From Kiritimatiellia bacterium (lineage in GTDB: Bacteria; Verrucomicrobiota; Kiritimatiellia; UBA8416; JAWODU01), in the NCBI GenBank assembly GCA_046483125.1, contig JAWODU010000019.1, forward strand, positions 1,911 through 65,910: 64,000 nt of DNA, read 5' to 3'. The position numbers and the translations under genes were made by a program. Shown here piece by piece: positions 7,896 to 59,100 of this stretch. The notes under the pieces are model-generated. The model made no database searches. It was given only the letters and a program-made list of their open reading frames with translations, and was not told where the DNA came from. How positions within the stretch are numbered: position 1 is the first letter of the stretch; each line of letters starts with the position of its first letter.

Positions 7896-7924
7896 TCTAC
7901 TGTTACCCCTGCACTTACCCCGTC

Positions 7925-8006
7925 GTAGCTCTCTGGGCTCTTTGTGTACCCTTTCCCCCGCGTCATGCACTAAAAATCCTGTTGATCCCGCTGATCCTGC
8001 CTGAAA
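7925..8006. repeat. Partial copy of the GC-rich intergenic repeat family plus three 9-bp tandem repeats (ATCCTGTTGATCCCGCTGATCCTGCCTGAAA at 7976-8006)
   Basis: ctctgggctctttgtgtaccctttcccccgcgtc matches the element at 13921-13960. The tandem TGATCCTGT-like units are shared with 15651-15676 and 54031-54052. Confidence 0.6.
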
Positions 8007-8077
8007 GCTTCTCTTCTTCCCGTCCTTCCCGCGCTTCCTGTAAATCTCCCTCCCTTTTGTGCCTTTTTGCGGCCATT

Positions 8078-9949
8078 CTACTCCCCAACATACATCAATT
8101 CAGGGCTCAATTCCCAGTTCGCGTCAAAAAACCCCGCGCAAAGCGCCGTATTGGACCCGTCTTCATCCCTTTCGTCCGAATACACCATGTAATCGGGAAG
8201 AAAATCGTACTTGTGATTGTTCGAAAGGCCCGCCCCCCACTGCAGTCCCGACTGCACAACAACGAGCATTGACCTGTTCCACGGACTCGGCCGTGTCAGC
8301 CACAGTCCGTTTCCCCGCCTGGCAAACCGGCGTTTCCCGACCACGTAATTGTCCTGCGTGATCCTTACGGGTGACCCTTCAAGCGCCTTCTGCATCAAAA
8401 CACTATCCTCAGGCTCTCCGAATACAAAAACGTTGTAATCGACGAGCTCCTTTTTCGTAATGCTTCCTTCCGAAGCCACGCGCGGGAGGGCGTCCGCGTA
8501 CCAGTACCAGTCCGCCACGCTGCCTATGAATCTCCGGCGGCTGTCCGGTGAGTCCGCCGAGGCCCGGACAAAAACAAACGGAGACAGAAACGCCTCGTTC
8601 ACCGGTCCCCTGGCCTTCCGCGGCCCGTACCTGCCGCTTTCTCCCAGCCGGTACCTGATGTTGAAACGGCCGGCCGCGTTGACGGGCACATTACGGAGCC
8701 GTTCCGGCATCAGGTCCGGATATATTGCAAGCGTATCGGCGCCTTCCACCGAAGCGGCGATTGCGTTCCCTCCGGCTTCAAGCGTAAGGACGGCCGCTTT
8801 TCTTCTCCTGCGAAAGTCCGACATGCGCGCCCACCGGTATCCCCTGTACCTGGGATGATATGAAATATACCTGAAGCGCGCGGGGTCCGGCCTGCGCCTT
8901 TTCTTCATCCAGTCCCTGAGCCCGCGCATGGCAAATGCCTTTTCGTATATCCAGTGGTCTCCTTCCTCGATTTCAACGTATTCGACACTGGAGTTGATTT
9001 GCTCCAGCGCCTTTATGAAATGCCTGGCTTCTTCAACCGGTATCAATGAATCCGCGGTTCCATGAACGCAGAAGGCGGGCAGGTTCGAAAGGTTCGGCAG
9101 AAGCGAGTAACCGAAGTGCGTGTCCACGAACATCCGTTTGTAAAACGGCACTTCGTCGCGCTCCACTCCGTGCCAGAAATAGTAATCTCCGCGACCCGCC
9201 ACAACCGCCAGCCCCGCGAACATGTCCGGATAATGAGCGCCCACCGTCCATACGCCCATGCCCCCCATGGAAATACCCGCCAGTACAATGCGATCTTCGT
9301 CTATATTGTATCTTCTAGTCATCTCGGCCATAACATTCAAGACGTCCTGTTCGCCTATTCCCTGGAAATCGGTGTTTCCCCGGCCGTATGGAACAGCGAC
9401 GCAGAAACCTTCCGTCTCCGCGAATTCGATAAGGGAAGAGGGTATATACTCCCAGTTGATGATGTTGAGGTCCGGAGAATAGCCGTGCAGGTAGACTACC
9501 ATCGGGTATCCGTCGGCAGGGGCGCCTCGAGACGGTAAAAATCGCACGAACGGCTGAAAAGAACCGTCGTTTTCCGCGAGATATCCCTCCTCTCGCAAAC
9601 CCGCAACAAGCGGGGGCGCCTCGCCCTGTCTCACGGCCCGGGCCGATGCTTCCGCTTTTCGTTTTTCCCGGGCTATTACCGTCGCGGCGTTGGTCGGCCC
9701 GTAAACCCGCTGGGCGTACGCCGCCTTGCGCAGGTAAAGGTGCATGTTCTGCCATTCGAACCGCAGTACGGGGTCATCCGGCTCGGACGGGATGCCGCCG
9801 GAACCCGCCGCTTCAGGCTGGTCCTCCAGAGACGGGTTCGGCTTTTGGGGACCTGTCGTCCGGCAGGACAGCGCGAGAAAAAAAAAGAGCGCCGACATCC
9901 GCGTAATCGAGATAAGAAAGCCGGATTTCCTGTTGCGAAGTGATCTCAT
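8078..9949 (-). CDS. Alpha/beta-hydrolase (esterase/S9-like) lipoprotein
   Basis: 623 aa. Signal peptide with a LALSC lipobox and a GISMGG nucleophile-elbow motif inside an alpha/beta-hydrolase core. The start overlaps the purL stop codon (ATGA). Confidence 0.7.
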
Positions 9950-12900
9950 CCCGCGTACTCGCGCGCGTTTTCGAACAGCCTGAGCCAGGGCCCTTCCTCG
10001 CCTTCACAGAAACCCTCAGGGCGATAGGACATCTGCACCGACCTGAACACCCGTTCCGGGTGAGGCATCATTATAGTCACACTTCCGTCCGGAGTGGTTA
10101 GCCCCGTGAGTCCCTCCGGGGAACCGTTGGGGTTATAAGGATACCTCCGGGTCGATTTGCCGTAATTGTCCACGAAACGGACGCAGGCCAGCCGCTTCTT
10201 ACGCAGGTCCTTTTCCGAACCGGTGACCCCGAAGTCCGCCCGGCCCTCCCCATGCGCCACAGGAACCCCGATTCTCGAACCCTCCATGCCTTTCAGAAGC
10301 ACCGAAGGGCTCTTTTCAATCCGGACCGTTATGTACCTGGCCTCGAACTGCTCGGAAAGATTGCCCGTAAAGGCCGGCCAGTGTTCGGCGCCGGGTATAA
10401 TCTCCTTCAACTGTGACATCATCTGGCACCCGTTGCACACTCCCAGGGCAAAGGTGTCTTCCCGCGCGAAGAACTCCGCGAATATCTCCTTGAGGCGCGG
10501 GTTGAAAAGTATCGATCTGGCCCACCCGGAGCCGGCTCCCAGCACGTCCCCGTAGGAAAACCCTCCGCAGACAGCCAGTCCGGCGAAACCGCACAGGTCC
10601 CCGCCGCCGAGAAGGTCCGTCATGTGAACATCAACGCAGGAGAAGCCCGCCCGGTCAAACGCCGCGGCCATTTCGAAGTGACCGTTTACGCCCTGTTCCC
10701 TCAGGATGGCAACCTTCGGCGCGGGACCCGGACGGAATGTCTCGCGTTTTGACGGATCGAACGACAGGGCGAAATTCATGCCGGGATCCTTTTCGTCGAG
10801 AAAGTTGTCGTACTCTTCCCCGGCGCATTGCGGGTTGTCGCGAAGCTTCTGCATCCGGCTTGTCAGCTCGGACCATGACCTGTGCATTTGCGTAAGGCTT
10901 CGTTTCAGAACCGGCCGGTCTTCCCTGAGGAAGGTTATTTCCCGTTGCCGAACGGGAGACCCCGCGACAAAACTGTGCTTTGCCAGGCCGTGCTCATCGA
11001 GGATTTCTCTCGCCCGCCCGGCCGCGTTTTCCGGGATCTGGAGCACCGCCCCCAGTTCCTCCGAAAACAGGACGGCCAGATCATCGTCCCCGAGTTCGTC
11101 CATATGCATCTTCGCGCCCGTTCCCCCGCCGAAACACATCTCGGCAACCGTCACCAGCAGTCCGCCGTCCGAACGGTCGTGATACGCAAGGAGTATTCCT
11201 TCATCCCTTAGACGTCCGACGGCGCTGAAAAAGGCCTTCAGCGTATCCGGGTCCTCCAGATCGGGACAATCCGCGCCCATCCGGTTGTAGACCCTGGCCA
11301 GCGCGGAACAGCCGAGCCTGTTTTTCCCAAGCCCAAGGTCTACCACGAACAGCAAGGAAGCTTCTCCCGTTTTAAGGTCGGGGGTCACGGTCCTGCGGAC
11401 GTCCTTCACCGGAGCAAACGCGCTTACAACAAGGCTCATCGGGGCGGTGATTTTCCGGCTCTCGCCGGCGGACGTCTGCCATACCGTCCGCATGGAAAGG
11501 GAATCCTTGCCCACCGGGATCGAGATTCCCAGGGCCGGACAGAGGTCCTCTCCGAGGGCCTTGACCGTGTCGTACAGGTTGGCGTCCTCGCCCTCCTCGC
11601 CGCACGGGCACATCCAGTTCGCGGACAATTTCACATCCCCGATATTGCGCACATCCGCCGATAGTATGTTCGTAATCGCCTCCCCTACTGCCATCCTTCC
11701 GGAGGCCGGAGCCGAAACTACGGCAATGTGAGTGCGTTCGCCCATGGCCATGGCCTCTCCCGTTACCGAGCCGCACGATGTGGAGGTCACGGCGGCGTCC
11801 GAGATCGGAACCTGGTAAGGACCGGCCATCTGGTCCCGGCACACGGTCCCGGTAATGGACCTGTCGGCAATCGTTATGAGAAAAGTCTTGTCCGCCACTG
11901 CCGGCAGTCTCAGCACCCTGTCCACGGCTTCGTCCACTTCCACATCCGACAGGTCAAGGGGAGCGTGCTTCTCCTCGAGGTGAGAGACATTCCTGACCAT
12001 CCGGGGCGGTTTACCGAACAGTACCTGCATATCCAGGTCTATGGGTTTATTATCAAAATGCCCGTCATGCAGTACAAGCCGCGCATCACCCGTGGCCTCT
12101 CCGATCAGCGACACCGGGCACCTCTCGCGTCTGCACAGTGCCAGGAAAGTCTCCAGCTCCGCGGACTTTACGGCCATAACGTACCTTTCCTGCGCCTCAC
12201 AGCACCATATCTCCATGGGGCTCATTGAAGAATCCTCGCTGTAAACCCTGCGTAATTCAAAACGCGCGCCCGTTTCCCGGACCAGTTCGGGACAGCCGTT
12301 GGAAAGGCCTCCCGCCCCCAGGTCGTGAATGCTCAATACCGGGTTCTGTTCTCCCGCCGCCATGCACGCGTCTATAACGCCCTGGCATCTTCTCTGCATT
12401 TCCGCGTTGTCGCGCTGTACGGAATCATAATCCAGGTCGGCCACGTTGCTCCCCGAGGCCATGGACGAAGCCGTTCCCCCTCCGAGCCCGATGCGCAGTG
12501 CGGGGCCGCCGATCTGGACAATATGCGCCTCGGGCGGAATGTCTTCCTTGTTTACGTGCTCGCGCCTGATGTTTCCCATGCCTCCCGCCACCATTATCGG
12601 TTTGTGATAGCCCCGGTAACGCCCGTTGTAGAATTCCTCGAATGTTTTAAATATACCTACAAGCTGTGGACGGCCGAACTCATTGCCGAAACGCGCCCCG
12701 CCAATGGGACCCTCGGTCATTATTTCAAGCGGGGTCGAAAGGCGCCCGGGAAACTCCGCGTAGTCTTTTTCCCAGGGCATGATGAAATCGGGAACCCGCA
12801 GGTTGGAAACCATGAACGCGCTGAGCCCGGCCTTGCTCCTCCCGCACCTTCCGGTAGCCGCCTCGTCCCTGATTTCGCCGCCCACTCCCGTGGCCGCTCC

Positions 12901-13815
12901 GGGATAGGGACATATGCCGGTGGGATGGTTGTGAGTTTCAACTTTCATTACGATATCCAGAATTGCCGGGACCCGGCGGTATTCGCGTCCGCCACTGCCG
13001 GACTGCCACCATCTGTCTTCGAAACCTTCAAGGATCGCGGCGTTGTCGCTGTAGGCGAGCAGTGTCCCTTCCGGATGTTTTTGGTGCGTGTTCCTGATCA
13101 TGGAAAAAAGGGATTTCTCCGCCTCTTTTCCGTCCAGAATCCAGTCGGCGTTGAATATCTTGTGCCTGCAGTGTTCGGAATTCACCTGCCCGAACATTAC
13201 CAGCTCCACGTCCGTGGGATTGCGCTTCATGGCGCGGTAAGATTCGTACAGGTAGTCTATTTCATCTTCGCTGAGCGCCAGTCCCATACTCGCGTTGGCC
13301 TCGGCAAGGGCCGGGCGGCCCCGCCCTGTCACGTCAACCTCCACAAGCGGAGCCGGCTCCATGCGGTCGAATATGTCCGACACATCCCTGTAAACGCCCT
13401 CGGTCATGCGGTCGTGCAGGAGCGGCAAAACCGGTTTGAGGGAATCAGCGCCGGGCTCCCTGCCCGAGCCGTCGATCAGGGAATACCTTATACCGCGCTC
13501 GACTCTCAGAATTTCCTTCAGACCGCAGTTCCTGAAAATATCGGTCGCCTTGGAGGACCAGGGCGAAATGGTCCCCTTCCTCGGCGTTACCAGCACTCCC
13601 CCGCCCTCACCGTCTCCTTCCCGTGCGCCCAGCAGTAAGCGCGCTTTCTCGAGGACATCGTCCGGCGGAGCGGATTCACAGCCCAGGAAGTAGACATACC
13701 CGGCGCGAATATTGCGGATATCGAGGCCGGGAGCCGCAGTGCGGATGCTGTTAAGCAGGGCGGCCTCCCTGAAGCCGGAAAGAGCGGCCCTGCCGTTGAG
13801 AATGATCGGTTTCAA
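9946..13815 (-). CDS. purL: Phosphoribosylformylglycinamidine synthase, large single-chain form
   Basis: Roughly 1290 aa with an FGAM synthase core and a C-terminal class I glutamine amidotransferase (GVCNGCQMM). A PurL-like N-terminus ([17 protein letters not shown]) begins at a TTG at 13815, preceded by a GGAGGAG RBS. The track ORF reaching 14148 is a spurious N-terminal extension through a repeat element. Confidence 0.9.
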
Positions 13816-13879
13816 AGGTTGCGCTCCTCCGTGTGTTGTGAGACGGGTCCTTAATACCACGGAGCGCCCGAGAACGTCA

Positions 13880-14160
13880 ACGCCCCTCGTCACGCAGGCC
13901 GGGGTGCGGGAGGGGTTCGGGTTCTCTGGGTTCTGCTTGTGCCCTTTCCCCCGCGTCGCGGGCGGCGTACTGGAGGTACTGTAGCGCCGCTTGTCCACGA
14001 TGCAAGGGGAGTGGAGCAGTAGGGACGTTGTCGGTTTTCCCATACATCCGTGAAATCTGTGGTTGCTCCCCTCCCCTCCCATCTTAATCGTAATCATAAT
14101 CCCAATCTTAATCTCTCCCTCCGTCCTCCGTCCTCTGCCATCTGCCATCTGTCGTCTTTT
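13880..14160. repeat. GC-rich mosaic intergenic repeat element (copy A) with a hairpin-capable core and a CT-rich tract
   Basis: gcgggaggggttcggg...ccctttcccccgcgtcgcgggcggcgtactggaggtactgtagcgccgc...gatgcaagggga recurs at 15481-15660 in the same orientation and at 27400-27450 in reverse orientation. The CT-rich tract ctccctccgtcctccgtcc is shared with 54061-54090. Confidence 0.75.
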
Positions 14161-14174
14161 GTCCCTCTTTGCGG

Positions 14175-15455: not shown

Positions 15456-15480
15456 GTCTCTTTCTTAGCATATGATCCCA

Positions 15481-15760
15481 CATCGCGCAACCCGTTTGCG
15501 CCCCTCCCCGCGTCACGCAGGTCGCGGCTTGGAGCGCGGGAGGGGTTCGGGGTCTCCGGGTTGTGCTTGCGCCCTTCCCCCCGCATCGCCGGCGGCCACT
15601 GGAAGATGATAGCGCCGCCGGACGCGATGCAAGGGAAACAGACCTCCCCCCATCCTGTAGATCCTGTTGATCCTGTCAAAAAATCCCCATGAGAATCCTG
15701 CGGAAGCGAAATGCGTGACGCAACAGCCCGCATCGCCGGCGGCTATTCCCCGGCGAAAAG
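15481..15760. repeat. GC-rich intergenic repeat element (copy B, about 1.5 tandem units) containing three 9-bp tandem repeats at 15651-15676
   Basis: High identity to 13880-13990. The core cgcatcgccggcggc occurs twice (about 15591 and 15728). gaagcgaaatgcgtgacgcaacagcc is the reverse complement of 27443-27468. Spurious ORFs on both strands share the peptide AEAKCVTQQPAS because of this repeat. Confidence 0.75.
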
Positions 15761-19853: not shown

Positions 19854-19929
19854 TGGAGCCAGCTGTCAGATTCGAACTGACGACCTAGTGATTACAAATC
19901 ACTTGCTCTGCCGACTGAGCTAAGCTGGC
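19854..19929 (-). tRNA. tRNA-Thr (anticodon UGU), 76 nt, CCA encoded
   Basis: The reverse complement folds as a cloverleaf: acceptor GCCAGCT/AGCTGGC, D-arm GCTC..GAGC, anticodon stem AGTGA/TCACT with loop TTTGTAA, T-arm GTCAG-TTCGAAT-CTGAC, discriminator T, CCA. Confidence 0.85.
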
Positions 19930-20160
19930 CCCGGTCCAGTATCATGCCTGCACCAAAAACATAATACGCGAGCGCCCCCTGCGCAATACACAAAAGAGAG
20001 AAGGAAAAGTGCACCTGTGCGGCCGGATAAGTGTCTACAGCCGCTCGTCGACATTATTTCTCAAAAACGTTACCGTTAAACGAAATTGTACCTTGCAAAC
20101 CGGTAAGACAATGCTCTAGCATGATACATGTGAAGCGTGTGATTATCACAACAGCAGGAG

Positions 20161-20589
20161 ATGACATCCGTGTCGACTAAAGCACGTGCACCGATGGGAG
20201 TTGCCCTGGTTATTTGCGATCAGGTGATGACAGAGGCAGGCACAAACAAGAAGAGCCTGATCGGGATCTTCAACCAAATCTCTGCGAAGCAATTTCCATG
20301 TCGCCACCCTCGATTATGTATCTTTGTATCGTTAACCGGTGGTCACGGCAAAGGAAAAGCTAAGGTCCGGTGTGTCAACGAAAACAACGAAGACGAAGAA
20401 CTATTCGGCGCAGAGGGAGAAATCAACTTTCAGAGTCCCCTTCATGTAGTGGAGATAAACTTTGAGTTCAACAACGCACCTTTTCGAGCTCCCGGCAAAC
20501 ACCGAATTGACTTTTTATATGAGGGGGCCCCGGTATTGCAGAGGCCGTTTCGTGTAACGCAAACCAAAACCAGGGGGAACCAGACATGA
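20161..20589 (+). CDS. Hypothetical protein, first gene of a three-gene operon ending in a MazF-like toxin
   Basis: 142 aa with no recognisable family. The stop overlaps the next start (ATGA). Lies in lower-GC DNA. Confidence 0.4.
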   Translation: MTSVSTKARAPMGVALVICDQVMTEAGTNKKSLIGIFNQISAKQFPCRHPRLCIFVSLTGGHGKGKAKVRCVNENNEDEELFGAEGEINFQSPLHVVEINFEFNNAPFRAPGKHRIDFLYEGAPVLQRPFRVTQTKTRGNQT

Positions 20590-20810
20590 GTATCCTTGTC
20601 AAAGAAAAACCCGCTGTTCGTATCGAGGGTAGCCCACGGGATGCAGATCAAGTGTTTTTCGATGATGATTTCGCATCATCGTTCTTCGAATTCAAGATTT
20701 TTATGGCACAGGAACTCTCGGACGATGAGGTTATCAGATCTGCCGTGGAGTCCGGCGCTTACCAGTTCCTGGATTCACCAGAAGAAGACCTGTATTCCAG
20801 TACGGATTGA
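20586..20810 (+). CDS. Small acidic protein, putative antitoxin of the downstream MazF-like toxin
   Basis: 74 aa, D/E-rich. Overlaps both neighbours by 4 nt, the typical position of an antitoxin upstream of a PemK/MazF gene. Confidence 0.4.
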   Translation: MSILVKEKPAVRIEGSPRDADQVFFDDDFASSFFEFKIFMAQELSDDEVIRSAVESGAYQFLDSPEEDLYSSTD

Positions 20811-21160
20811 TAAGGATGAAGAAATGGGACGTCGTTCTTCTTTCATATCCATTCACTGACCTAACTGGTACTAAGGTGCGGCCCGCTGTAGTCCTGTCGC
20901 CTGACTCCGAAAATTCTGCGCAGGATGACGGGCTTTTCCTTTTGGTGACTTCAAACACCGCACGTATTTCAAGATATGATCTAGTGGTGGATTCAGGCCA
21001 TAAGGAATTCACTAAAACGGGCCTCAGAAAATCATCGGCCCTTAGAATTAACAAGCTGGTAACACTTAAGCAGACCCTGATCAGGAGGACGCTGGGCAAG
21101 ATTGGCCCAGAACTGCGGAAAGATATTACGTCTAGGCTTAGGGGCTACCTTGATCTCTAA
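20807..21160 (+). CDS. MazF/PemK-family type II toxin (endoribonuclease)
   Basis: 117 aa. WDVVLLSYPFTDLTGTKVRPAVVLS followed by LLVTSNT matches the PemK/MazF signature. Confidence 0.75.
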   Translation: MIRMKKWDVVLLSYPFTDLTGTKVRPAVVLSPDSENSAQDDGLFLLVTSNTARISRYDLVVDSGHKEFTKTGLRKSSALRINKLVTLKQTLIRRTLGKIGPELRKDITSRLRGYLDL

Positions 21161-21237
21161 GACAGACGTCTTACTTGAAGCGACAGCGGAAGTGGGCGGG
21201 CGGCGAGGACTACGACTAAGCCCAATTTCGTCGTTCG

Positions 21238-21492
21238 CTATCTGTAGACTTCTTTTCGATCTCCGATCGCGACCACCAAGACTACAAGCCTGTCATCATG
21301 GATTTCGTAAATCACGCGGTATGAACCGATGCGAATACGCCAAGCAGGCCGGCCCGAAAGCTTCTTGCAGCCGGGAGGGCGAGGATTCTCCGCAAGGGAT
21401 TCAATGGCTGCAATGATGCGTGCGTGGTCCTGACGGTTGATTTTCGCGAGTTGCCGTTGAGCCCGACGCAGAATATCGACTGCGTACGTCAC
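21238..21492 (-). CDS. RelE/ParE-family type II toxin
   Basis: 84 aa. LAENP..GCKKLSGRPAWRIRIGSYRVIYEIHDDRLVVLVVAIGDRKEVY is a canonical RelE/ParE core. Confidence 0.85.
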   Translation of the reverse strand: MTYAVDILRRAQRQLAKINRQDHARIIAAIESLAENPRPPGCKKLSGRPAWRIRIGSYRVIYEIHDDRLVVLVVAIGDRKEVYR

Positions 21493-21695
21493 GTATCATA
21501 TCCCTCTCGAATCTCTCGCACGGCTTGCTCGAAAGGGATGGCGTCCTGAGGGCCGGCTTTCGCCTTGTCGTAGGTTCTGATATCGTCGAGTTCCTCGAGA
21601 TCCTCGACAACGCGTTGCCACTCGGAAACAGGAAGGATGACAGATTTGGGGTTCTGTTTTTCGTCAACCACGTATTCTGGATGGACTTTAATCAT
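21489..21695 (-). CDS. Phd/YefM-type antitoxin paired with the RelE-like toxin
   Basis: 68 aa. Overlaps the toxin start by 4 nt and carries a GGAGGAAATAAT RBS. The acidic C-terminus is typical of these antitoxins. Confidence 0.65.
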   Translation of the reverse strand: MIKVHPEYVVDEKQNPKSVILPVSEWQRVVEDLEELDDIRTYDKAKAGPQDAIPFEQAVREIREGYDT

Positions 21696-21749
21696 ATTAT
21701 TTCCTCCAACTGACAGGCTTCTCGATCTTGCAGATCAATTCTTTTCGCT

Positions 21750-21942
21750 TCATGCGATTTGAAGCTCCGCCACCTTGCGGACACCAGGGATGTGCCCGCC
21801 TGTGAGGTCGTCATAAAGATCCTTAAGATTTTCCTGAAGGTTCCTCAAGGGTTTCTCCTTGAGTCATGTAATCGGGATAATCCTCCAGATATCCCAACCA
21901 CATATTTTCATATTGCCAGTGGACATATCGTATTGTTTTCAT
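21750..21942 (-). pseudogene. HicB-like (HicB_lk_antitox-type) antitoxin gene with an apparent +1 frameshift
   Basis: Frame A gives MKTIRYVHWQYENMWLGYLEDYPDYMTQGETLEEPSGKS*. Shifting one nucleotide at about 21835 continues the family-conserved ...TLEELQENLKDLYDDLTGGHIPGVRKVAELQIA*. This is consistent with an extra C in a CC run. Confidence 0.5.
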
Positions 21943-22009
21943 GTTATTAATATACACCTTGTTTGGATTTTTAGCAATCTTCTCTTTTGACACAACGCAA
22001 TCGGGGGAT

Positions 22010-22204
22010 TCATACCCGGCGTAGGCCGCATCTGCCATACCCGCCGGTCTGCCCCAGCTGCCTCCAGCCACTGACCCGGTACGCCGTGCCTCGAAAAAAC
22101 TGCCCGTCAACAAAGCTCTCGGCCACCAGGATCGGATGTTTATACCGCTGTTGCCAGTCGTTACTCAGACGCTGCAGGCACAACTTCATCGTCCGGCTGG
22201 CCAA
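22010..22204 (-). mobile_element. Possible IS/transposase-associated remnant (DUF4338-like C-terminal fragment)
   Basis: The 64-aa ORF VAESFVDGQFFRGTAYRVSGWRQLGQTGGYGR resembles the conserved C-terminus of IS-associated proteins. No intact transposase or terminal inverted repeats were recognised. Confidence 0.25.
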
Positions 22205-22390
22205 GTTCGCATAGTGACAGTCCGGCAGGAGCTTATGTGTTTTTTAAGGGACGCTGACCCCGTGGCCCCGTCGCTGATTTGTCTTCTTCGCAAGGCAGAA
22301 TAATGCTTAAATACTAATTCAAGGGTTGGCCCCACGGTCCACCACGGTCCATCTTAAAACGAGCATTTCCTTCCGTTTGTCCAAGTAAGT

Positions 22391-27313: not shown

Positions 27314-27399
27314 TAATGTCCTCCTGATTGATTCCGCATACTATAAACTGCCGCCCTGTTATGCAAACATTTTAACTTGCGGTTTTTCATTTTTGCATC

Positions 27400-27600
27400 G
27401 CGGATAAGCGGCGCTACAGTACCTCCAGTACGCCGCCAGCGATGCAGGCTGTTGCGTCACGCATTTCGCTTCCGGAGGATTCGCAAATCGGATCGCAAGC
27501 CTGCCGCTTCTGCAAGGCCCCGCGCTCCGGGCTCCAACCCGCGTGTGGCGCGGGGGAGTGGCCGTACCGAACCTGCCCGGCATGCCCCTTGCCTCAATCC
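27400..27600. repeat. GC-rich intergenic repeat element (copy C, reverse orientation) in the nadA 5' leader
   Basis: aagcggcgctacagtacctccagtacgccgcc is the reverse complement of 13951-13995. ggctgttgcgtcacgcatttcgcttc is the reverse complement of 15706-15731. Its orientation relative to the downstream gene matches copies A and B. Confidence 0.7.
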
Positions 27601-27640
27601 ACAAAGAAATGTACATTACACCAAACAAGGAGGAATCACC

Positions 27641-35821: not shown

Positions 35822-36715
35822 TCAGAGCAGGCCCTGCTCTTTCAGAAACTGTTCCGCCACTTCTTCCGGTTCGCGTTTTTTTTCATCGACCTGGTAGTTG
35901 AGCTTTCTCATCGTCTTATCGTCAATCAAACCGCCGAGACGTTCCAGGGCATCGACCGCGTCCGGATACTTCTCTTTAAATTCAATGCGAATTACCGGGG
36001 CCGCGAAATACGGCGGGAAGAACTGCTTGTCGTCTTTCAGTTTTTGCAGATTGTAAGCGGCAATGCGTCCGTCGGTGGCAAAGGCGCAGATTACGTCCAC
36101 GTTGCCCTGCTCCGCCGCTTCATACATGATCCCGGGGTCCATGTCCATGGTGTTCCCGAAATCAAGCCCGTAGCGGTTCTTGAGACCGGGGTACCCGTCC
36201 TCACGTTCCATGAATTCGGCCGTGAATCCGGCCGTCAGGGTATCGCCAATGGCCCCGAGGTCGCTTATGGTGTCCAGGTTTTTTTCTTCGGCGAAGCTTT
36301 CGCGGACCGTTATGGCGTAAGTGTTGTTGAAGCCGAAGGGTTCCAGCCAGTCGCATTGATAGCGCTCCCTGTAAGCCCGGTCCACAGCCTCGTACGCTTC
36401 TTCGGGGTCCCGTATCACGTCTTTTTTCAGAATGGCCGTCAGGGCGGTTCCTGTGTATTCGGCGTACACGTCAAGGCTTCCGGATTCCAGCCCTCCGTGG
36501 CAGATCATTGTGCCTCCGAGGTTGAACACTCTCTTAACGTCCATGTCTGTTTCCGCCTCGATCACAAGGGCCATCAGTTCGCCCAGTATCAGCTGTTCGG
36601 TAAAGTTTTTCGACCCTACCCGGATAACGCCTTCCGTGTTGCCGCCGCCGCATCCGGATCCGGCTAGAATCGCGGCCGCCGCCGCGCACGCCGTTATGTT
36701 TTTTATTATATGCAT
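35822..36715 (-). CDS. Glycine betaine/quaternary-amine ABC transporter substrate-binding lipoprotein (OpuAC/ProX-like)
   Basis: 297 aa with a LAGSGC lipobox and IRVGSKNFTEQLILGEL typical of OpuAC. Confidence 0.85.
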   Translation of the reverse strand: MHIIKNITACAAAAAILAGSGCGGGNTEGVIRVGSKNFTEQLILGELMALVIEAETDMDVKRVFNLGGTMICHGGLESGSLDVYAEYTGTALTAILKKDVIRDPEEAYEAVDRAYRERYQCDWLEPFGFNNTYAITVRESFAEEKNLDTISDLGAIGDTLTAGFTAEFMEREDGYPGLKNRYGLDFGNTMDMDPGIMYEAAEQGNVDVICAFATDGRIAAYNLQKLKDDKQFFPPYFAAPVIRIEFKEKYPDAVDALERLGGLIDDKTMRKLNYQVDEKKREPEEVAEQFLKEQGLL

Positions 36716-36728
36716 AACTTAACTCCCG

Positions 36729-37370
36729 TTATTCCGACTGCCTCAGTTTCTTTTTCAGTGCTTTCTCCGCGAGATGGAGCAGAAAATCGACCAGCAACGC
36801 CAGTATCGAAGCCCCGACGACTCCCAGCAGTATGAGGTCGCGACTGCGTATGCTGAGTCCGCGGTTAATGAAATCGCCCAGGCCTCCGGCGCCGATAAGC
36901 GTGGAAAGTGTCGCGATACCGATATTGATCACGGTCGCCGTGCGGATGCCGGCCATGATAATGGGTGAAGCAAGCGGCAGTTCCACCTTCCATAACCTCT
37001 GTGTACGGGTATATCCCAGGCCGTTGGCGGCTTCCAGAATGGCCGGGCCCACATTCTGAAGCCCAGCATAGGTGTTGCGCACAATAGGCAGAAGCGCGTA
37101 TAGCACCAGCGCCGTAAAGGCGGGAAGAAAGCCCATCGCGTTCATCCATACCTGCAGGAGGGCCAGCATGGCCAGACTGGGGATGGTCTGCACGACCCCC
37201 GCGATCCCCATCACCGGGCCGGCAAGCTTTTGATGCCGCCCCACCAGCATGCCAAGCGGCACGCCCACGGCCACGGCGAGCCCGCAGGCCGAACCCACCA
37301 GCAGTACATGCTCCAGTGTTTTACTCAGCAACATCGTGTGCCGTTCGGCGATAAGGTTCAGGAATTCCAT
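36729..37370 (-). CDS. ABC transporter permease (OpuAB/ProW-like)
   Basis: 213 aa with 5-6 TM helices and a BPD-transporter EAA-like loop. Confidence 0.85.
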   Translation of the reverse strand: MEFLNLIAERHTMLLSKTLEHVLLVGSACGLAVAVGVPLGMLVGRHQKLAGPVMGIAGVVQTIPSLAMLALLQVWMNAMGFLPAFTALVLYALLPIVRNTYAGLQNVGPAILEAANGLGYTRTQRLWKVELPLASPIIMAGIRTATVINIGIATLSTLIGAGGLGDFINRGLSIRSRDLILLGVVGASILALLVDFLLHLAEKALKKKLRQSE

Positions 37371-38128
37371 GACGCTTCCCGGTTAAGCTGTTTCAGTTGA
37401 TTCGCCGGTTTTTCAAACAGGCTTTTTACAAAATCGGAGGCGGGGCGCTGAAGGATGTCATCTTTTGTCCCTACCTGTTCCAGCCGGCCCTCATGCATCA
37501 CCGCCACGCGGTCGGCCAGTGTCAGCGCTTCGAAAATATCGTGGGTAACGAAAATAATCGATTTGCTGATTTCCCTCTTCAGCGAAAGGAATTCCTGCTG
37601 AAGCTCGTCCCTGGTCAGCGCGTCCAGGGCGCCGAAAGGCTCGTCCATCAGGAGGTATTTCGGATCGGCCGCCAGACCCCGCGCAACTCCCACCCGCTGT
37701 TTCTGTCCCCCGGAAAGCTGATCGGGGTATTGAGAGCCGTACCGGTCGGGGGGCAGTTTAACCAGCTCCATAAGCTTCCGTGAACGATCACGGCGTTTCT
37801 GCCGGTCCCAGCCAAGAAGGCGCGGCACGGTTTCAATGTTTTCCTCAACGGTCATGTGAGGAAACAGGCCGATGCCCTGGAAAACATATCCGATGGACCT
37901 GCGAAGTTCTACCTCGTCGCGGTCCATGATATTCCGGCCGTCCACCGTAATGATACCGCCCGAAAGTTCAATCAGGCGGTTGATCATCTTGAGCGTGGTG
38001 GTCTTGCCGCATCCGGAGGACCCCAGCAGAACGAGCGTTTCATCCTCTTCAACGGTCAGGGAAACGCCGTCCACCGCGTATGTACTGCCGCCGTCAAAGG
38101 ACTTTCTGACTTCCTCGAGCTCAATCAT
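37358..38128 (-). CDS. ABC transporter ATP-binding protein (OpuAA/ProV-like, no CBS domains)
   Basis: 256 aa. Walker A GSSGCGKTT, signature LSGGQKQRV and Walker B LLMDEP. Confidence 0.9.
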   Translation of the reverse strand: MIELEEVRKSFDGGSTYAVDGVSLTVEEDETLVLLGSSGCGKTTTLKMINRLIELSGGIITVDGRNIMDRDEVELRRSIGYVFQGIGLFPHMTVEENIETVPRLLGWDRQKRRDRSRKLMELVKLPPDRYGSQYPDQLSGGQKQRVGVARGLAADPKYLLMDEPFGALDALTRDELQQEFLSLKREISKSIIFVTHDIFEALTLADRVAVMHEGRLEQVGTKDDILQRPASDFVKSLFEKPANQLKQLNREASWNS

Positions 38129-44302: not shown

Positions 44303-45778
44303 CTATTTCAGTGTCTGCGGCAGTATGCCCGGTATTTCTCTTCTGATGTGCTCCGCCACTTCATCGGGCAGAGGATTGCGTTCCTGCTCCATGATCTGCT
44401 CGTACTGCCGGTGCGCGGCCCAGAGTGCTCCATGCTCTTCGTCTTCCAGCGGGTACTTTACGTAAACGGACTCACGGGACGGGAGCGGAAGGTGGTAGAT
44501 AAAGGTTTTCTGGTCTTCCGCCATTACTTCCCTGATCGTGGAAAGGACTTCTTCGGTCCCGTCCTCGGAAAAGCCGGGCTCCTTGAGCATATGCTTAATG
44601 AACCCTATGTGGGCGTCGTCCATGACCGCCTGTTCCGGGCAGAAAATGTTGGTCCTTTCCAGGAGACCGAAGGCGTAATGAATGTACTGGGCGCCCCCGC
44701 GCGGCACCGAAGCCAGCGTCAGGATCTTTTCAGCCGTCGCCTGTATGCCCGGAGCGGGCGCATCCGCCACACCCGCCGTGGAATAACACGGAATGCCGTA
44801 GAAGCGCGCCATCTGCGCGCAGTCGATATTGTAGTGGCTGAATTCGGGCGCGCCGTACATGTCGTTCAGGTTGTCGAGCCTCGTGCGCACGGGAACGGCG
44901 CCGTAGAGTATGGAACTGCCGGGCTGGACCATCTGGTTGAGTGTTATGCCGGCGAGCAGTTCCGCGTTTATCAGCGCCGTCATGCCGAATTCGTCGAACG
45001 GTCCCGTGGCCCCTCCCATGGGACAGCTCGATATGACAACGGGCTGGCGCCGCCTGGCTATTTCCATAAACGTCTCCGCCGTGTCCTCCACCAGCTGTAA
45101 AGGGCTCTTGACCGCACAGCAGATAAACGAAATCACCGGATTGGTCTTGAAAGCTTCCTTCCCGCCGGCCACTATTTCGGCCATTTTCAAGACTTCGTCG
45201 AGCGAGTCGATATCCGTCAGTCCGGCCTGAACGTGCTTCGTTATGTTGTTAAGGCTGGCCAGGAACTTGTTCACGTCCTTGTTGCGTGCGGTAACTTCCT
45301 CATCCTGAATGTTGACACAGCGGATGAAGAAGTCGAGATTGGGCAGATGATCGCACAGATGGGCGGCCCTGCACAGCCGTTGGATGGAACCGTTCTCTCT
45401 GCTGAATACCGGCTTGCCGTCTTCAAAAGAGACGTCCAGCCATATGTTCGTCTCCGACCCGCTCCCGAACCGCACGCGCGGCTCCCCGGCATTCAGGATA
45501 AGCCGGTTGTCCGGGTTTCTCGCGCCCAGCACCACCGTGGAAGGCGCCGATTCCACCGCCCTGCTTACCATGTCGGACGGAATGCGGACACGACTGCAGT
45601 CTTTGGCGTCTTCAACCGCCGCGCCGGCCTTTTGGAATACCTTCGCGGCCTTTTCGTTGTAACACAGAAGCCCGGGATCCTGGAGCATCTCCCTGGATGC
45701 CGCGTCTACCTGGGCAATCTGCTTCTCCGAGAGTCGCAGGTAGGGTTTTACGAGCACTCCCTCACGCTGTTTCTTCAT
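44303..45778 (-). CDS. MttB-superfamily (non-pyrrolysine) quaternary-amine:corrinoid methyltransferase homologue 1
   Basis: Roughly 490 aa from the ATG at 45778 (MKKQREG...). TIM-barrel MttB-family similarity and no in-frame amber codon. The track ORF extends to 45859. Confidence 0.8.
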   Translation of the reverse strand: MKKQREGVLVKPYLRLSEKQIAQVDAASREMLQDPGLLCYNEKAAKVFQKAGAAVEDAKDCSRVRIPSDMVSRAVESAPSTVVLGARNPDNRLILNAGEPRVRFGSGSETNIWLDVSFEDGKPVFSRENGSIQRLCRAAHLCDHLPNLDFFIRCVNIQDEEVTARNKDVNKFLASLNNITKHVQAGLTDIDSLDEVLKMAEIVAGGKEAFKTNPVISFICCAVKSPLQLVEDTAETFMEIARRRQPVVISSCPMGGATGPFDEFGMTALINAELLAGITLNQMVQPGSSILYGAVPVRTRLDNLNDMYGAPEFSHYNIDCAQMARFYGIPCYSTAGVADAPAPGIQATAEKILTLASVPRGGAQYIHYAFGLLERTNIFCPEQAVMDDAHIGFIKHMLKEPGFSEDGTEEVLSTIREVMAEDQKTFIYHLPLPSRESVYVKYPLEDEEHGALWAAHRQYEQIMEQERNPLPDEVAEHIRREIPGILPQTLK

Positions 45779-45866
45779 GACTTCCCTTCTGTTTTCTTTT
45801 TTCGGAATAGGTCCCACGGTTGCCACAGCAGTTGCCATGCGCCCCGGCCGCGGAGACACGATCGCC

Positions 45867-47333
45867 TCATTCTACACCGGGTGTACGGATCTCCGGGCAG
45901 GTTTTCAGAATATCGCTCCGCAGAGACGGCTCTATCAGTTCGGGCGCCTGCCCCTTGCGCACCTCGGCCACGAAGGCCCTTGCCCTGGACAGGGCGTCGT
46001 CATCCGGCCCCATGCTTTCGCGCCTGTCCCGGTTGGAGAGTTTCGGCTCGAAAAATTCGCCGCGCATATATCTGATCGTGTGCTCCTCCGCGAGGTAATC
46101 TTTCCCCGGCCCCTTTTTGATCATTACGTCGGTTGCCAGGGTGCCCCTGTCCACCTCGATTCCCCTGAGTACTCTCTGGCACATCCCCAGTATTTCGTTG
46201 TCCATCGCAAGCTTTTCGTAGGAGACCGTAAGGTCCGTTTCCATCAGCCCGGCAATATCGTGAATATAATTCGCCCCGCTCATGGCCACCAGCAGACTGG
46301 ACATTGCGCTCTCGTACGCCGCCTGGATATCCACTTCTTTGGCGTCGGTCGTTCCGCCGGTCGAATACAGAGGTATCTCGAAATACTGGGCCATTTGAGA
46401 AACCGCGGCGTTTATCATGGCCCTTTCTATGGCGCCGCCCACGTGGTTCATGGTGCGGAGATTCGTGACCGATCCCACGCTCCCGCATATGCCGGGAGCC
46501 CCCCTGCGCACCGACTGAACCAGCGCTATCCCGCCGAGTGTTTCGGCAATGTGGGTCAGGACGTTCCCGGCCAGTGTTATCGGAGATGTGGTTCCGCATA
46601 TCGGCTCGGTAGGCATTACAACCGGCAGGCCCTTCCCCGCAAGGTAACAGCTTATTTCGCCGTAGTGGTCGTCTATTTTAAAAGGGCTGATAACCAGCGT
46701 AATGAAAGATACAAATGGCTTCTCGGCCAGCGCCTCGGCGCCGCCGGCCAGTTTTTCCGCGATTTCAACGGCCCGACGGCATCCGTTCATGGTGTATATA
46801 CCGCCCATCACGTGCTTGGTGGTGTTGTCAAAGGCATGAAAGAACCGGTTGGCGTCGATTTCCTCCCTCTCTTCTATGTCGTTGGGAAACACGTTAATGG
46901 TAAAAAGATGGATATTCTCAAGAGCCTGCACCATACGGGCGTTAAGTATGACGTCGGTAACCGTCGAAGGCCGCCTTTCCCCGGTGTCAGGGTCCAGTAC
47001 GTATATCGCCGTTCCCCCGGTGCCGTAATGGACGCGGTTTTTTTCGAGCACGCAGTCGGTTTTTCCGTCACGCGAGTAAAGAGTTACGCTTGAAGGGTTG
47101 GAGGAAACCGCGTCTTCAACCAGGCTCCGGGACAGCTTGACCGTGGACGTTTCCTCGTCAACTTCGGCTCCCGCATTCCTGAAGGCCTCCCTTGCGGCCT
47201 TTGAATAGACCAGCATGCCCGCCTTTTCCAGAATCTCGAAAGCCGATTCGGCTATTTCCTTTACATCCCGGTCCGAAAGGGGCCTGTACAGCGATGACCT
47301 GAGCCCGTGTTTTTCATGTTTCAATTCAGTCAT
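45867..47333 (-). CDS. MttB-superfamily (non-pyrrolysine) methyltransferase homologue 2
   Basis: 488 aa, paralogue of the downstream gene. No adjacent corrinoid-protein gene is visible. Confidence 0.8.
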   Translation of the reverse strand: MTELKHEKHGLRSSLYRPLSDRDVKEIAESAFEILEKAGMLVYSKAAREAFRNAGAEVDEETSTVKLSRSLVEDAVSSNPSSVTLYSRDGKTDCVLEKNRVHYGTGGTAIYVLDPDTGERRPSTVTDVILNARMVQALENIHLFTINVFPNDIEEREEIDANRFFHAFDNTTKHVMGGIYTMNGCRRAVEIAEKLAGGAEALAEKPFVSFITLVISPFKIDDHYGEISCYLAGKGLPVVMPTEPICGTTSPITLAGNVLTHIAETLGGIALVQSVRRGAPGICGSVGSVTNLRTMNHVGGAIERAMINAAVSQMAQYFEIPLYSTGGTTDAKEVDIQAAYESAMSSLLVAMSGANYIHDIAGLMETDLTVSYEKLAMDNEILGMCQRVLRGIEVDRGTLATDVMIKKGPGKDYLAEEHTIRYMRGEFFEPKLSNRDRRESMGPDDDALSRARAFVAEVRKGQAPELIEPSLRSDILKTCPEIRTPGVE

Positions 47334-47600
47334 AATACCTTTTCCCTTCTCAATCGGCCCCTACGCCACACGGCCGGCCGGGCTTTTCGGCCCGCCGGTC
47401 GCTGTACCGTCCGGTACGCGGATTTTCGAGCAATATAACCCCCGACCCGCCTGCCGGTTAAAACCTGTAGCGTCTACAGTACCCGCGGGCGCCGGTGAAT
47501 TCAAGCCTAAATACGCGGGCGTACGAAGTGCTCGTCGTAAAATTACATGACATGATGGCCCGTTGGCTGATATTCTTACATTTGAAACAGGAGCAAAGAT

Positions 47601-53971: not shown

Positions 53972-53984
53972 TGCAGTATTCAGT

Positions 53985-54110
53985 ACACGGTACCGTTCCC
54001 CTGAACCGCCCAGCCTCCCTCTTGCTCCCCATCCTGTTGATCCTGTCTGAAATTCCCCTCTTCTCTCTTCCTCTCCTCCGTGCCTCCGTGGTTCAATTCT
54101 CCCCTCCGCC
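53985..54110. repeat. Intergenic repeat element (copy E) with two 9-bp tandem repeats (54031-54052) and a CT-rich tract
   Basis: atcctgttgatcctgtctgaaa and cttcctctcctccgtgcctccgt match the elements at 7976-8006, 15651-15676 and 14101-14130. Confidence 0.6.
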
Positions 54111-54112
54111 GC

Positions 54113-56126: not shown

Positions 56127-59100
56127 TTATTCCTCTTTTCCGGAGAAAAGCTTTTCGCTTTCCTTAACGTACCAGCTGTGCTGTGTGGGGTCTATATTCC
56201 GCCACCGCATCAGGGCTTTTCTCATCCTCTGCAGGAACGGTCTGTTCGTGGTGGCCCAGTTGGTGTCCTGGCCGGAAACACGGTAAATGTCCATATACAG
56301 CCTGTAGCTTTCCACCGTTTCGTCGTAGCGGGCGTTGAATATGACCTTCTGGGTCACGCCAAGGTCAAAAGGCGCCAGCGCTACCGAGTATTCCAGGGTG
56401 TAGGCAGGACGTCCTGAATCATCCTTACTTTTATGTATTCTTTTACATGAAGCTATAAGATCGCCTATGGACTGCTCGGTAAAGTCGGAAAAATACTCGT
56501 AAAGGTAATACACGACGCCCGCGGCCAGCTCCAGCTGGTAAATAAAGGGAAACGCAACGTGCATTTTCTCTCCGTCGTTGTCGGGGAGCGACCACTTCCG
56601 GCGTCCCGAAGGCACCGCCGTGCGCGTCGCGACGTAAGCGGGGTACACCGTCGAAAGCAGAACCAGTCCCACGGTAAACAGAATGGCCCACACCACGATA
56701 AGCGAGGAGAAGTTTATGTTTATTCCCTGAATAAGACCCGCGGACTTCACCGCTATCGCCCCGATCTGGCCTATAAGGTACCCGCCTATGGCGCCGATGA
56801 AACTGTACACAAGGGCCTCGGCCAGGAAAAACGTGAAAATGTGCAGGGGGTTCAGGCCTATGGCGTTGTAAACGGCTATCTCCGAACGCCGCTCATACAC
56901 GGTCCCCAGCATCGTGTTGAAAATAATCAGCCCCGCTATCAGAAGGGGTATTACAAGTCTTGATACCCCGCCTATGGTGGTCCTGTAACTGCTCCCCACG
57001 TAGTAAACCCCCTGGTCCGTGTCCTGCTCGGCGTCTTCCCCGAGCCTGAACGGTTCCCGGCTCCCCAAGAAGAACTTCGCCCCGGTTATGCCCAGCAGAA
57101 AGTCCGCGGCCTCCCACAGCGCGGTGTCGCTACGTTCCTCTTTTCTTGTCCGGAGCCTTATGGAAACCGTGTAGGGGTCCGCGTCCATGTCTTCGGCAAG
57201 TTCCGCGGGCAGGAGTACCAGCGAAGCCATATCTATTGTGGACATCCCAACGTAGTCGGTATCGGATTCTTCAACCCCCTGGGATTTCTGCTGTGCCTCG
57301 GCTGCCTTTTCCTGAAACGGAACCAGGGGAAGCTTCGGATCCAGGTCCCGCAGAGCGCGGTACCTGCTGTCGTCAAGGATACCCGCCACCTTCAGGTCCC
57401 GGCCAAGGAACCGGACGTACGTTTCCCCGGCGTCATCCGGATGGAGCCCCAGCGCCTCGGCCATGGCCGCGGTTATTATGATTTCCTCCGCGCACGGCCC
57501 CGAAAAGAACTCACCGCCCAGAAGAGGAAACGGGCCCAGGAAATACCTGTCTTCCTGAGGCAGGCCCACTACCGCTTTCACGTCGACATTCTGCGCTTCT
57601 TCGCCCGCGAGATCGAGCCTCCAAGTAATGCGCGCATCCTTGGCGCCCCTCGGCGGCAGTTTGATCCTGCGGACAAGTACCTGGGCTTTCCCGGTAAAGA
57701 GCGTGTTAAAAACTTCCGCGGTGGCCTCGTCCATGGATTTACCGCCGGGAGCGCGGTAAAAGAGTCCCGTATAGGGGCTGTTTTCGGACTTCGATATGAG
57801 GGTCGGCTTCGCCTTCCTGGATACGCTGGAAAATGCCAGCATGGTGAATACCACCAGCACGATGGTTCCCGTGGTCAGCGAGGTGCGCACCCTGCGGCGC
57901 TTCATGTTGTTTACGCCGATAATCATCGCCGTCTGTCCCACGGTTCCGTAAGCCACGTCGAATTCCATACTGCCGGAGGTCTTGAACAGAAGTTCCATTT
58001 CGGTCTGGAACCGCTTCTTCAGAACCCAGGCTATAAACAATCCCATGGCTCCCAGAACGAAGGCTATGAATATGGCCTCTGCGTTCATTGCTATGGCAAA
58101 CGCCGGGTGGATAAAGCGGAACCCGACGTATGTGACCAGAAACAGGAGTGTAAATGCCCCCAGTTCGTGCTGAAGCTTGGTGAAATTGAAAATCAGCTTC
58201 TGAAGAAAATAACAGAACGGCACCATCATCGCCATGTACAGCATGATCGCCTTGAGCATGTCCGCGTTCATGCCCCTTATCTGGGAGTACGCCTTCACTT
58301 CCGCGCCCAGCGCCCCGTAAAGCGCGAGAAGGTATCCGGTGTGGTCCCGCTGGGCTTTTTCGGCTTCCATTCGATTGAGGGCGGATTTTCCCTTTTCAAG
58401 AAAAGTATCCAGGAGTTCGTTGGCGACGCCCTTCATTTCGTTCTTGCGGTAACGGTTGAGTTTGTCCATGTCCCGCGCCGCGACGGCGAAGAAATCCGCT
58501 CCAAGCTCTTCGGCGTTTTTATATCCGTAACCCCCCGGCTCCTTTTCCTTGGGATTGAGCGCGCACCTTTTATTTCCGGTAAGCAGGAGCAGGCGGTCTT
58601 CATGGAATCCCTCCTGCTTTTTCTTCCACAGGTAAACCGCCACCGGCCCCGTGGAAACATGGCTTTTCGCGGGCGAAAGTGAAATCGCCCCGTGCACCCC
58701 GTATTCCTCCGGCTCCGACTGCATCTGGGCGCTCTTGGGCCACCATTGATCAACTTTAACCTGGGAGCTTCCCGCCAGGGTCGGATCCTTGCGGGTATAA
58801 ACCGGGAACTCCCTGCATGGGAACATGGGCAGGGTGGTACTCGGCCCGGGCACTATGTTGCTGGTAATTTCTTCGGATTCCTGGACCCGTCCCTTGTCGA
58901 TGGTGTGGGTGACTTTTCTGAAACCTTCGCCCATGCGGTATGCCGTGGAACAAAGCTGGCCGTCATTGAGGCCGTAAATGTACGTGGAGCCGCTTATGTC
59001 GGTAATAGCCGGGTAGCAGTTGACGACGTCACCGTCAACAAGCGGAGGAACAAGCGTGTTCCCGCCGGGATAAAGGGTCACCATACAGCCGGGCACCGGA

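Follow-up and report, generated by a model that had tools for sequence, protein, structure and literature searches.

Pneumococcal BOX elements consist of boxA, boxB and boxC modules in a fixed A-Bn-C order, and the Correia elements of Neisseria carry terminal inverted repeats (TIRs) and a TA duplication; both are co-transcribed with the flanking genes and are able to change expression. REPs and REPINs are typically present in more than 100 copies per genome, the cognate RAYT being a Y1 HUH transposase gene flanked by the repeats, and REPs are rare between divergent genes. In the strict sense a REP is an extragenic palindrome of 20-40 bp, with a 6-13-bp stem and an unpaired terminal GTAG or CGTC, and two members of the PVC superphylum, Opitutus terrae and Rhodopirellula baltica, have abundant REPs, often as head-to-head dimers and sometimes together with other repeated tracts (PMC3733652). 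The BIMEs of E. coli combine REP palindromic units, in alternating orientation at regular spacing, with extra-palindromic motifs (PMC2817692), and the RAYT-mobilized REPINs of Pseudomonas and other bacteria are inverted REP doublets forming one hairpin, with singlets as remnants (PMC3337134, PMC3116915). We describe here five intergenic spacers (E1-E5), carrying common non-coding modules, in a 64-kb stretch of Kiritimatiellia DNA, the whole of which is referred to below as the window. We think it rather likely that these elements form a lineage-specific REP/REPIN/BIME-like family of non-coding interspersed mosaic repeats.

Modules of the five spacers

The repeats were detected by a repeat search together with self-blastn of the five spacers against the 64-kb window. 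The initial annotation had reported near-identical blocks at five places; self-blastn did recover common sub-blocks, of 16-61 nt and 86-100% identity, collinear and co-oriented, but the blocks as wholes are not near-identical, being mosaics of differing sub-modules (Table 1). Segment 13956-14005 matches 27442-27393 in inverted direction (94% over 50 nt, E 3e-16), as does 15693-15742 with 27482-27433 (94% over 50 nt, E 3e-16), and 13906-13966 matches 15536-15596 (88.5% over 61 nt, E 3e-13); exact short matches join 7949-7964 with 13942-13957, 15661-15677 with 54031-54047, and 15580-15596 with 15727-15743. An nhmmer profile for each module found no extra copy of any of them within the window. 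The additional weak copy proposed at 47455-47495 did not hold up, having only about 13 nt in common with the elements and giving no match in the profile search at E <= 10. That segment, located 5' of the second of two MttB genes (see below), can form a separate small hairpin with perfect pairing, CTGTAG-CGT-CTACAG, and its overlap of about 13 nt is with the loop of the palindromic unit (PU), GCG(T)CTACAGTACC.

The right flank of PU alternates, being M1 in E2 and E3 and M4 in E4 and after the half-copy of E3, and in E1 the M1 module occurs without PU, after the junction TGCAT/GACGC. The M0 module is similar to this PU-less junction together with the start of M1 (TGCGTGACGCGGGGAGGGGCGCAA compared with TGCATGACGCGGGGGAAAGGG), a likeness which suggests an internal duplication. 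The left edge of the hairpin unit in E2 is overlapped by an inverted repeat with 85% complementary arms and a 45-nt loop, pairing the G-rich tract GGGAGGGGAGGGGAGCA with TGCTCCACTCCCCTTGC.

Table 1. Spacers, modules and related repeats (window positions, unless a contig is named; strand is that of the gene orientation).
Feature	Position	Strand	Remarks
Spacer E1	7897-8077	-	S9-peptidase gene to giant 1987-aa gene; without hairpin core
E1 M5	8073-8054	-	immediately 3' of stop codon
E1 GGA-rich purine tract	between M5 and M3 array	-	
E1 M3 array	8007-7973	-	
E1 PU-less junction	7969-7956	-	break TGCAT/GACGC
E1 M1	7964-7928	-	
Spacer E2	13816-14174	-	thiE to purL
E2 M5	14175-14156	-	
E2 microrepeats	14066-14151	-	period 5-7 nt
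E2 20-nt inverted repeat	13999-14018 / 14064-14083		
E2 PU hairpin (PU copy 1)	14005-13950	-	imperfect palindrome TTGCATCGTGGACAAGCGGCGCTACAGTACCTCCAGTACGCCGCCCGCGACGCGGG
E2 M1	13957-13906	-	
E2 M0	13898-13881	-	followed by Shine-Dalgarno GGAGG and TTG start 13815 (purL)
Spacer E3	15456-15742	-	Na+/H+ exchanger gene to BFN-UVR nuclease gene
E3 isolated right half of PU	15743-15727	-	directly 3' of stop codon
E3 M4	15728-15690	-	
E3 M3 array	15688-15648	-	
E3 PU hairpin (PU copy 2)	15632-15580	-	longer inner stem CCGGCGGC/GCCGCCGG, other loop
E3 M1	15587-15536	-	
E3 M0	15521-15496	-	
E3 M4/M0 16-nt inverted pair	15706-15721 / 15510-15525		encloses 180 nt
Spacer E4	27314-27640	+	divergent lipoprotein-like gene / nadA
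E4 PU hairpin (PU copy 3)	27393-27448	+	94% identical to PU copy 1
E4 M4	27447-27485	+	
E4 degenerate M0-like block	27519-27543	+	
Spacer E5	53972-54112	-	OPT-like transporter gene to DUF6785/6784 membrane-protein gene; without hairpin core
E5 short repeats CACGGAGG	5' of M3 in gene orientation	-	
E5 M3 array	54058-54021	-	followed by G-rich tail
M5 sequence			GCCGCAAAAAGGCACAAAAG; E1, E2
M3 sequence in E1			CAGGATCAGCGGGATCAACAGGAT; 9-nt-period array (ACAGGATNN)n
M0 sequence			begins CCTGCGTGACG; E2, E3, degenerate in E4
M3 array site, L155	872-940		
M3 array site, L165	2341-2406		
M3 array site, L169	5973-6041		
M3 array site, L146	1601-1741		
L136 array/palindrome sites	e.g. 9590-9647, 11022-11079, 11568-11621		

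PU is a GC-rich imperfect palindrome of about 55 nt (53-56), in which two inverted arms, each of about 20 nt, enclose a spacer or loop of 10-17 nt, with stem segments of 7-9 bp (outer), 6-8 bp (inner) and a further 3 bp. The window holds three full copies, in E2, E3 and E4, and one half-copy (15727-15743), whose 17 nt are the same as those of the right arm in the full E3 copy. The hairpin cores quoted in the initial annotation are present and do fold, but they are confined to these three spacers, with none at 7925-8006 or 53985-54110. Folded as RNA, PU copies 1, 2 and 3 gave -26.7 kcal/mol (z -2.8), -27.3 kcal/mol (z -3.2) and -26.1 kcal/mol (z -4.0), respectively, and folds with DNA parameters agreed with these, giving -13.4 kcal/mol for copy 1 and a z of -4.9 for copy 3. 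The complementary strand folds about equally (-27.6 to -28.7 kcal/mol, z -2.1 to -3.6), as expected of a DNA palindrome rather than of a strand-specific RNA.

The core had further been described as covarying, which the alignment of the three copies does not bear out: 11 of the 18 pairs are invariant, there is one double change, sitting next to the loop where the alignment is poor, and a score as high as the observed one was obtained in 153 of 500 shuffles. In the E3 variant the inner stem is longer, through changes that turn mismatches into pairs; these would be compatible with a maintained palindrome but are not statistical covariation. A second hairpin, in which the end of M1 pairs with M0, is common to E2 and E3, two copies in which covariation is uninformative. 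CTAC, the complement of GTAG, lies inside the PU loop in E2 and E4, with CTAT in E3, and CGTC adjoins the palindrome in E2 only, the other PU copies having CATC. None of the PU copies was flagged for an intrinsic-terminator pattern; PU is followed by GGGGG or AGGCTG, with no U-run. The hairpin loops of E2 and E4 (13975-13985 and 27413-27423) show the anti-Shine-Dalgarno-like ACCUCC in gene orientation, and that of E3 CUUCC; tandem GGAGG repeats are found in E2 and E4 as well, for example at 14118-14135.

Genes around the elements and orthologous loci

The gene names given initially to the flanks were correct by Pfam, which places at the spacers an S9 peptidase, PurL, ThiE, a BFN and UVR nuclease, a Na+/H+ exchanger, NadA, and DUF6785/6784 and OPT-like membrane proteins. 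The spurious N-terminal ORF extensions noted initially were also borne out, the purL ORF being 111 codons and the nadA ORF 88 codons too long. From the true TTG start at 13815, PurL aligns with an orthologue from the first residue on, so that the additional codons of purL and nadA are artefacts which the repeats produce. The peptide EAKCVTQQPAS, noted initially as shared, does exist and represents the antisense reading of M4 in E3 and E4. That the elements always have the same orientation relative to the downstream gene is correct for all five spacers, but alone this has a P of only about 0.06. E4 is the sole opposite-strand copy, so orientation follows nadA rather than the window's uniformly negative GC skew; the match in five of five spacers tracks transcription and could reflect function. 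E4 lies between divergent genes, and a promoter for the leftward gene was flagged at 27367-27340. No transposase or RAYT (Y1_Tnp) was found among the genes of the 64-kb window, no direct repeat marking a target-site duplication at any homology boundary in the five spacers, and no consistent terminal inverted repeats, E2 and E4 having none and E3 the 16-nt M4/M0 pair.

Several other features of the window deserve mention. Two long genes have almost no Pfam coverage: 1932-7895 (minus strand, 1987 aa), with a weak match to 3-keto-disaccharide hydrolase/LamG-like domains, and 56127-61511 (minus strand, 1794 aa), with a C-terminal FtsX-like permease domain and, as neighbours, an ABC/FtsX pair and a PqqD-like gene. 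Methyltransferases of the MttB family are encoded by two tandem genes (44303-47333, minus strand) next to a glycine-betaine-type ABC transporter (OpuAC, 35822-38128). An Rfam PYLIS_3 match at 46253-46352 (41 bits, gathering threshold 38) falls inside an uninterrupted MttB ORF; it therefore reflects coding homology and provides no evidence for a pyrrolysine UAG site. An islet of low GC content (48%; 19854-22300), adjoining tRNA-Thr(TGT), encodes a DUF6941 protein, a PemK/MazF-like toxin (20807-21160) and a RelB-like/ParE pair (21238-21695), and is probably a small integrated toxin-antitoxin island.

The cluster of lipoyl synthase, aminotransferase IV, PTS-EIIA, (exchanger), BFN, (ThiE) and PurL is kept in distant relatives, the closest other BFN protein being only 65% identical. 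In the relatives the genes of the cluster overlap or are separated by 0-44 nt (a 4-nt overlap of thiE and purL in L107; 40 nt from BFN to purL in L108; 2 nt from EIIA to BFN and 44 nt from BFN to thiE in L118), compared with 287 nt (E3) and 359 nt (E2) in the window. The window has the same cluster with module-filled spacers of these lengths, and the spacers are therefore derived insertions; as judged from these sequences, the modules are shown to have invaded and enlarged spacers whose ancestral length was 0-44 nt. PU, M1, M4, M0 and M5 were not found in the relatives' loci, M3 being the exception. Intergenic arrays with a period of 6-9 nt occur in the relatives L105 and L108, often as inverted pairs between convergent genes; in such spacers L105 (17013-17131 and 15658-15896) and L108 (14519-14597) have the inverted heptamer arrays (GAACATC)n/(GATGTTC)n and (AGTGATC)n/(GATCACT)n, which would fold into long hairpins and may represent an unusual terminator architecture of the clade.

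Searches beyond the window and the M3 module

The PU pattern gave 77 matches in 185,579 species-representative genomes, and a loop-anchored PU pattern gave 27 in the JGI metagenomes, all of them chance matches in coding DNA. Neither M4 nor M1 had a match in IMG/VR viral contigs, the PU, M1, M4, M0 and M5 profiles found nothing in 457 kb of fetched viral loci, and the E3 spacer had no real match among phage and plasmid records. The spurious 93-aa ORF across E3 had no homologue in the protein databases even at E <= 10. The Rfam search that had been proposed for the elements assigned the spacers to no family at the gathering threshold (Rfam 15), the best sub-threshold scores of a permissive search being 17-25 bits against thresholds of 47-110. 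Our literature searches turned up no description of repeats of this sort from Kiritimatiellia, nor any paper with the M3 strings or with the array and palindrome strings of L136 (see below).

M3 with its flanks has the form GGGGA-TTTTTG-(ACAGGATNN)2-3-GGGG. The relative L105 (45% GC) has a 25/28 match in a 60-nt convergent spacer, and M3 with its flanks (GGGGA..TTTTTG..array..GGGG) is present at 85-90% identity in many IMG/VR contigs with a GC content of 0.55-0.68; conservation to this extent, flanks included, across different metagenomes hints at a possible constraint. In seven contigs (L155, L156, L159, L165, L169, L140 and L146) M3 occurs as inverted doublets forming long hairpins, sometimes flanked by A or T runs, and solo copies stand directly upstream of a Shine-Dalgarno sequence and ATG in short intercistronic gaps (L172, 3043; L151, 9108). 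Contig L136 (IMG/VR 3300029959_001594) is a Mu-like prophage by its Pfam Mu Gp36/Gp37 matches, and its M3-type arrays (ACAGGATTT)n adjoin 12 copies of a GTAG-tagged perfect palindrome, GTAGGGGCAATTCATGAATTGCCCCTAC. A 68-nt alignment (75%) joins E5 (54096-54031) to one arm of an inverted pair of about 75 nt in L146, the outer end of which is TTGAACCAC; within the window no inverted partner was found for the M3 copies. Two further ideas about M3 were discarded: a Dam/GATC reading, GATC not being unusual in the window (240 observed, 256 expected), and kinship with the long (GGACAGGAT)n arrays of low-GC viral contigs, which are collagen-like Gly-X-Y coding repeats.

These observations also allow M3 to be seen as a cis element present throughout a clade, namely GC-rich bacteria like the Kiritimatiellia and their Mu-like prophages, served by a dedicated trans factor and having PU-like, genome-specific palindromes as interchangeable partners. 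We regard this as rather improbable; in such a case M3 could be the RNA target of a CsrA-type protein, a doublet acting as terminator or in the manner of an uptake signal, or a site recognized by a new mobilizing enzyme.

Origin and possible role of the elements

The initial annotation had left open whether the elements were REP- or MITE-like, structured leader RNAs or protein-binding modules, and of these readings the first is the best supported: the spacers contain a palindrome in a mosaic with extra-palindromic modules, which the relatives' spacers lack, and they show no Rfam match and no coding signal. The occurrence of M3 elsewhere next to a GTAG-tagged palindrome, and as inverted doublets, argues for a REP/BIME-like family; against it, the 64-kb window has just the three full copies and one half-copy of PU, and no upstream transcript is expected at E4, with its divergent genes. 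The family is new but ordinary in kind, and a regulatory RNA is not demonstrated.

It might be argued that low-complexity, GC-rich spacers resemble each other by chance, or that the assembly is at fault, because the spacers consist partly of low-complexity microrepeats and because the blocks which join E5 and E1 to the others are all short. Blast E values of 1e-13 to 1e-17 within 64 kb, obtained with complex sequence, speak against this, as do the length of the blocks (50-60 nt, below read length), their unique flanks and the conserved gene cluster; we consider the idea to be effectively refuted by self-blastn and practically negligible. Classical MITEs or foldback elements moved by a DDE transposase, of which the window would hold mostly solo arms and nested insertions, would account for the 68-nt alignment of E5 with one arm of the L146 pair and for the 16-nt inverted pair around 180 nt in E3. 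However, such elements seem quite unlikely here, given the missing target-site duplications, the lack of an inverted partner for any M3 copy in the window, the absence of terminal inverted repeats from E2 and E4, and the lack of a transposase nearby.

Two regulatory explanations have to be weighed with these. The elements might be regulatory modules acting as DNA, namely pieces of operators and promoters such as TGCGT(S)ACGCA, a palindrome found in M4 and M0, or, within PU, a weak promoter, TTGCAT-N15/16-TA(C/T)(A/C)(G/A)T. The motif GCGTSACGC is over-represented (5 observed, 0.85 expected) and provides a candidate for the protein-binding modules mentioned in the initial annotation; three of the five occurrences are inside elements, that of E2 just upstream of a candidate promoter, TTGACG-18-TATTAA, and a TAnnnT hexamer follows TTGCAT by 15-16 nt in both variants of the PU loop (both read by eye), while all copies are co-oriented with the downstream gene. 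Yet the promoter scan flagged no consensus sigma-70 site of this kind within the elements, the candidate promoters downstream of M0 are weak and were likewise not flagged, and the homology between copies ends before the candidate -35 boxes. Moreover, purL, nadA, the BFN nuclease and thiE genes, and those of the giant secreted protein and the DUF6785 membrane protein form no obvious regulon, and the relatives express the same genes without such a spacer, so that regulation at the DNA level appears unlikely. A structured cis-acting RNA, either a 5' leader or an intercistronic riboregulator, would fit the stable hairpin, the second conserved hairpin between the end of M1 and M0 and the constant gene-strand orientation; M3 (ACAGGAUG-like) and the GGA/GGAGG tracts might then be CsrA-like sites, or CCUCC in the PU loop might mask the Shine-Dalgarno sequence. 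M3 matches the CsrA SELEX core, RUACARGGAUGU, and the CsrB repeat, CAGGAUG, and in other contigs (L172 and L151) it lies directly upstream of a Shine-Dalgarno sequence and ATG. The claim of a structured 5' leader leaned, however, on the covariation, which three copies do not support, and its downstream genes belong to unrelated pathways, with the nadA copy between divergent genes. Both strands fold about alike and have no Rfam match; the L105 copy of M3 has two of its three GGA motifs changed while its GATC spacing is kept, M3 in other genomes is usually inside long perfect stems, and no CsrA gene was seen, a small ORF beside flagellin in L118, examined as a candidate, not being CsrA. We therefore hold an RNA of this kind to be decidedly unlikely.

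If the elements are a REP/BIME-like family, as we prefer to think, PU would be the unit joined in varying combinations to M1/M0 downstream, to M4 as an alternative right flank, to M3, to M5 after stop codons and to purine-rich microrepeats. Spread would occur at the DNA level, by hairpin- or ssDNA-dependent transposition in trans or by recombination or gene conversion between copies, and would be followed by local slippage. As four of the five spacers are enclosed in arrays of co-directional genes, these four are probably transcribed, and the transcribed hairpin (-26 to -27 kcal/mol) would hold up 3' exonucleases or bring about partial termination. Genes whose translation is coupled in the relatives would thereby become independent in their expression, and insertions of tolerated orientation would be the ones kept. 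Mobility of the elements is inferred, as is any influence on the stability of mRNAs or on the coupling of operons.

With these elements a family of interspersed mosaic repeats is documented for the Kiritimatiellia, an uncultured PVC lineage that has been little studied. The repeats lengthen spacers and split ancestral operons (thiE-purL and exchanger/EIIA-BFN), cause systematic N-terminal over-extension of gene calls (by 111 codons for purL and 88 for nadA) as well as spurious shared peptides, and are likely break points in MAG assembly. If mobile, they would provide a handle for finding their mobilizing enzyme.

Integron attC sites, dif and CRISPR were excluded by inspection, as neither a GTTRRRY core nor an array is present and the flanks are housekeeping genes. 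BOX and Correia elements resemble the present ones in being modular, composite intergenic repeats with stable secondary structure, but there is no sequence relation, and the TIRs and TA duplication of Correia elements were not found here. The L136 prophage also has a mosaic in which an M3-type array adjoins a palindromic unit and is dispersed in intergenic gaps; in contrast to the elements of the window, its palindrome is a perfect, GTAG-tagged 28-nt REP unrelated to PU, and M1, M4 and M0 are absent. The GTAG/CGTC-tagged REP super-families share PVC-superphylum hosts with our repeats, but PU, although extragenic, is 53-56 nt long and has no unpaired terminal GTAG or CGTC, the defining tag. The geometry of PU is compatible with that of REPINs, with two inverted arms of about 20 nt and a short spacer, forming one hairpin, and with a singlet (15727-15743) in the same spacer as a full copy, and the sequence is lineage-specific as in REPINs; the PU arms are, however, not themselves palindromes, no RAYT is present in the 64-kb window, and GTAG/CTAC is in the loop and is absent from E3 (n = 3). 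E. coli BIMEs differ in their REPs of 20-40 nt, compared with about 55 nt for PU, in the terminal GTAG that PU lacks, and in their alternating orientation at regular spacing; in the window one copy lies between divergent promoters, the half and full PU of E3 have the same orientation about 100 nt apart, and the other spacers with PU have a single one. They are alike in consisting of palindromic units in a mosaic with a few conserved extra-palindromic motifs (here, PU in combinations with M1 or M4, M0, M3 and M5), extragenic and GC-rich, located within operons and after stop codons, and joined to alternative flanks.
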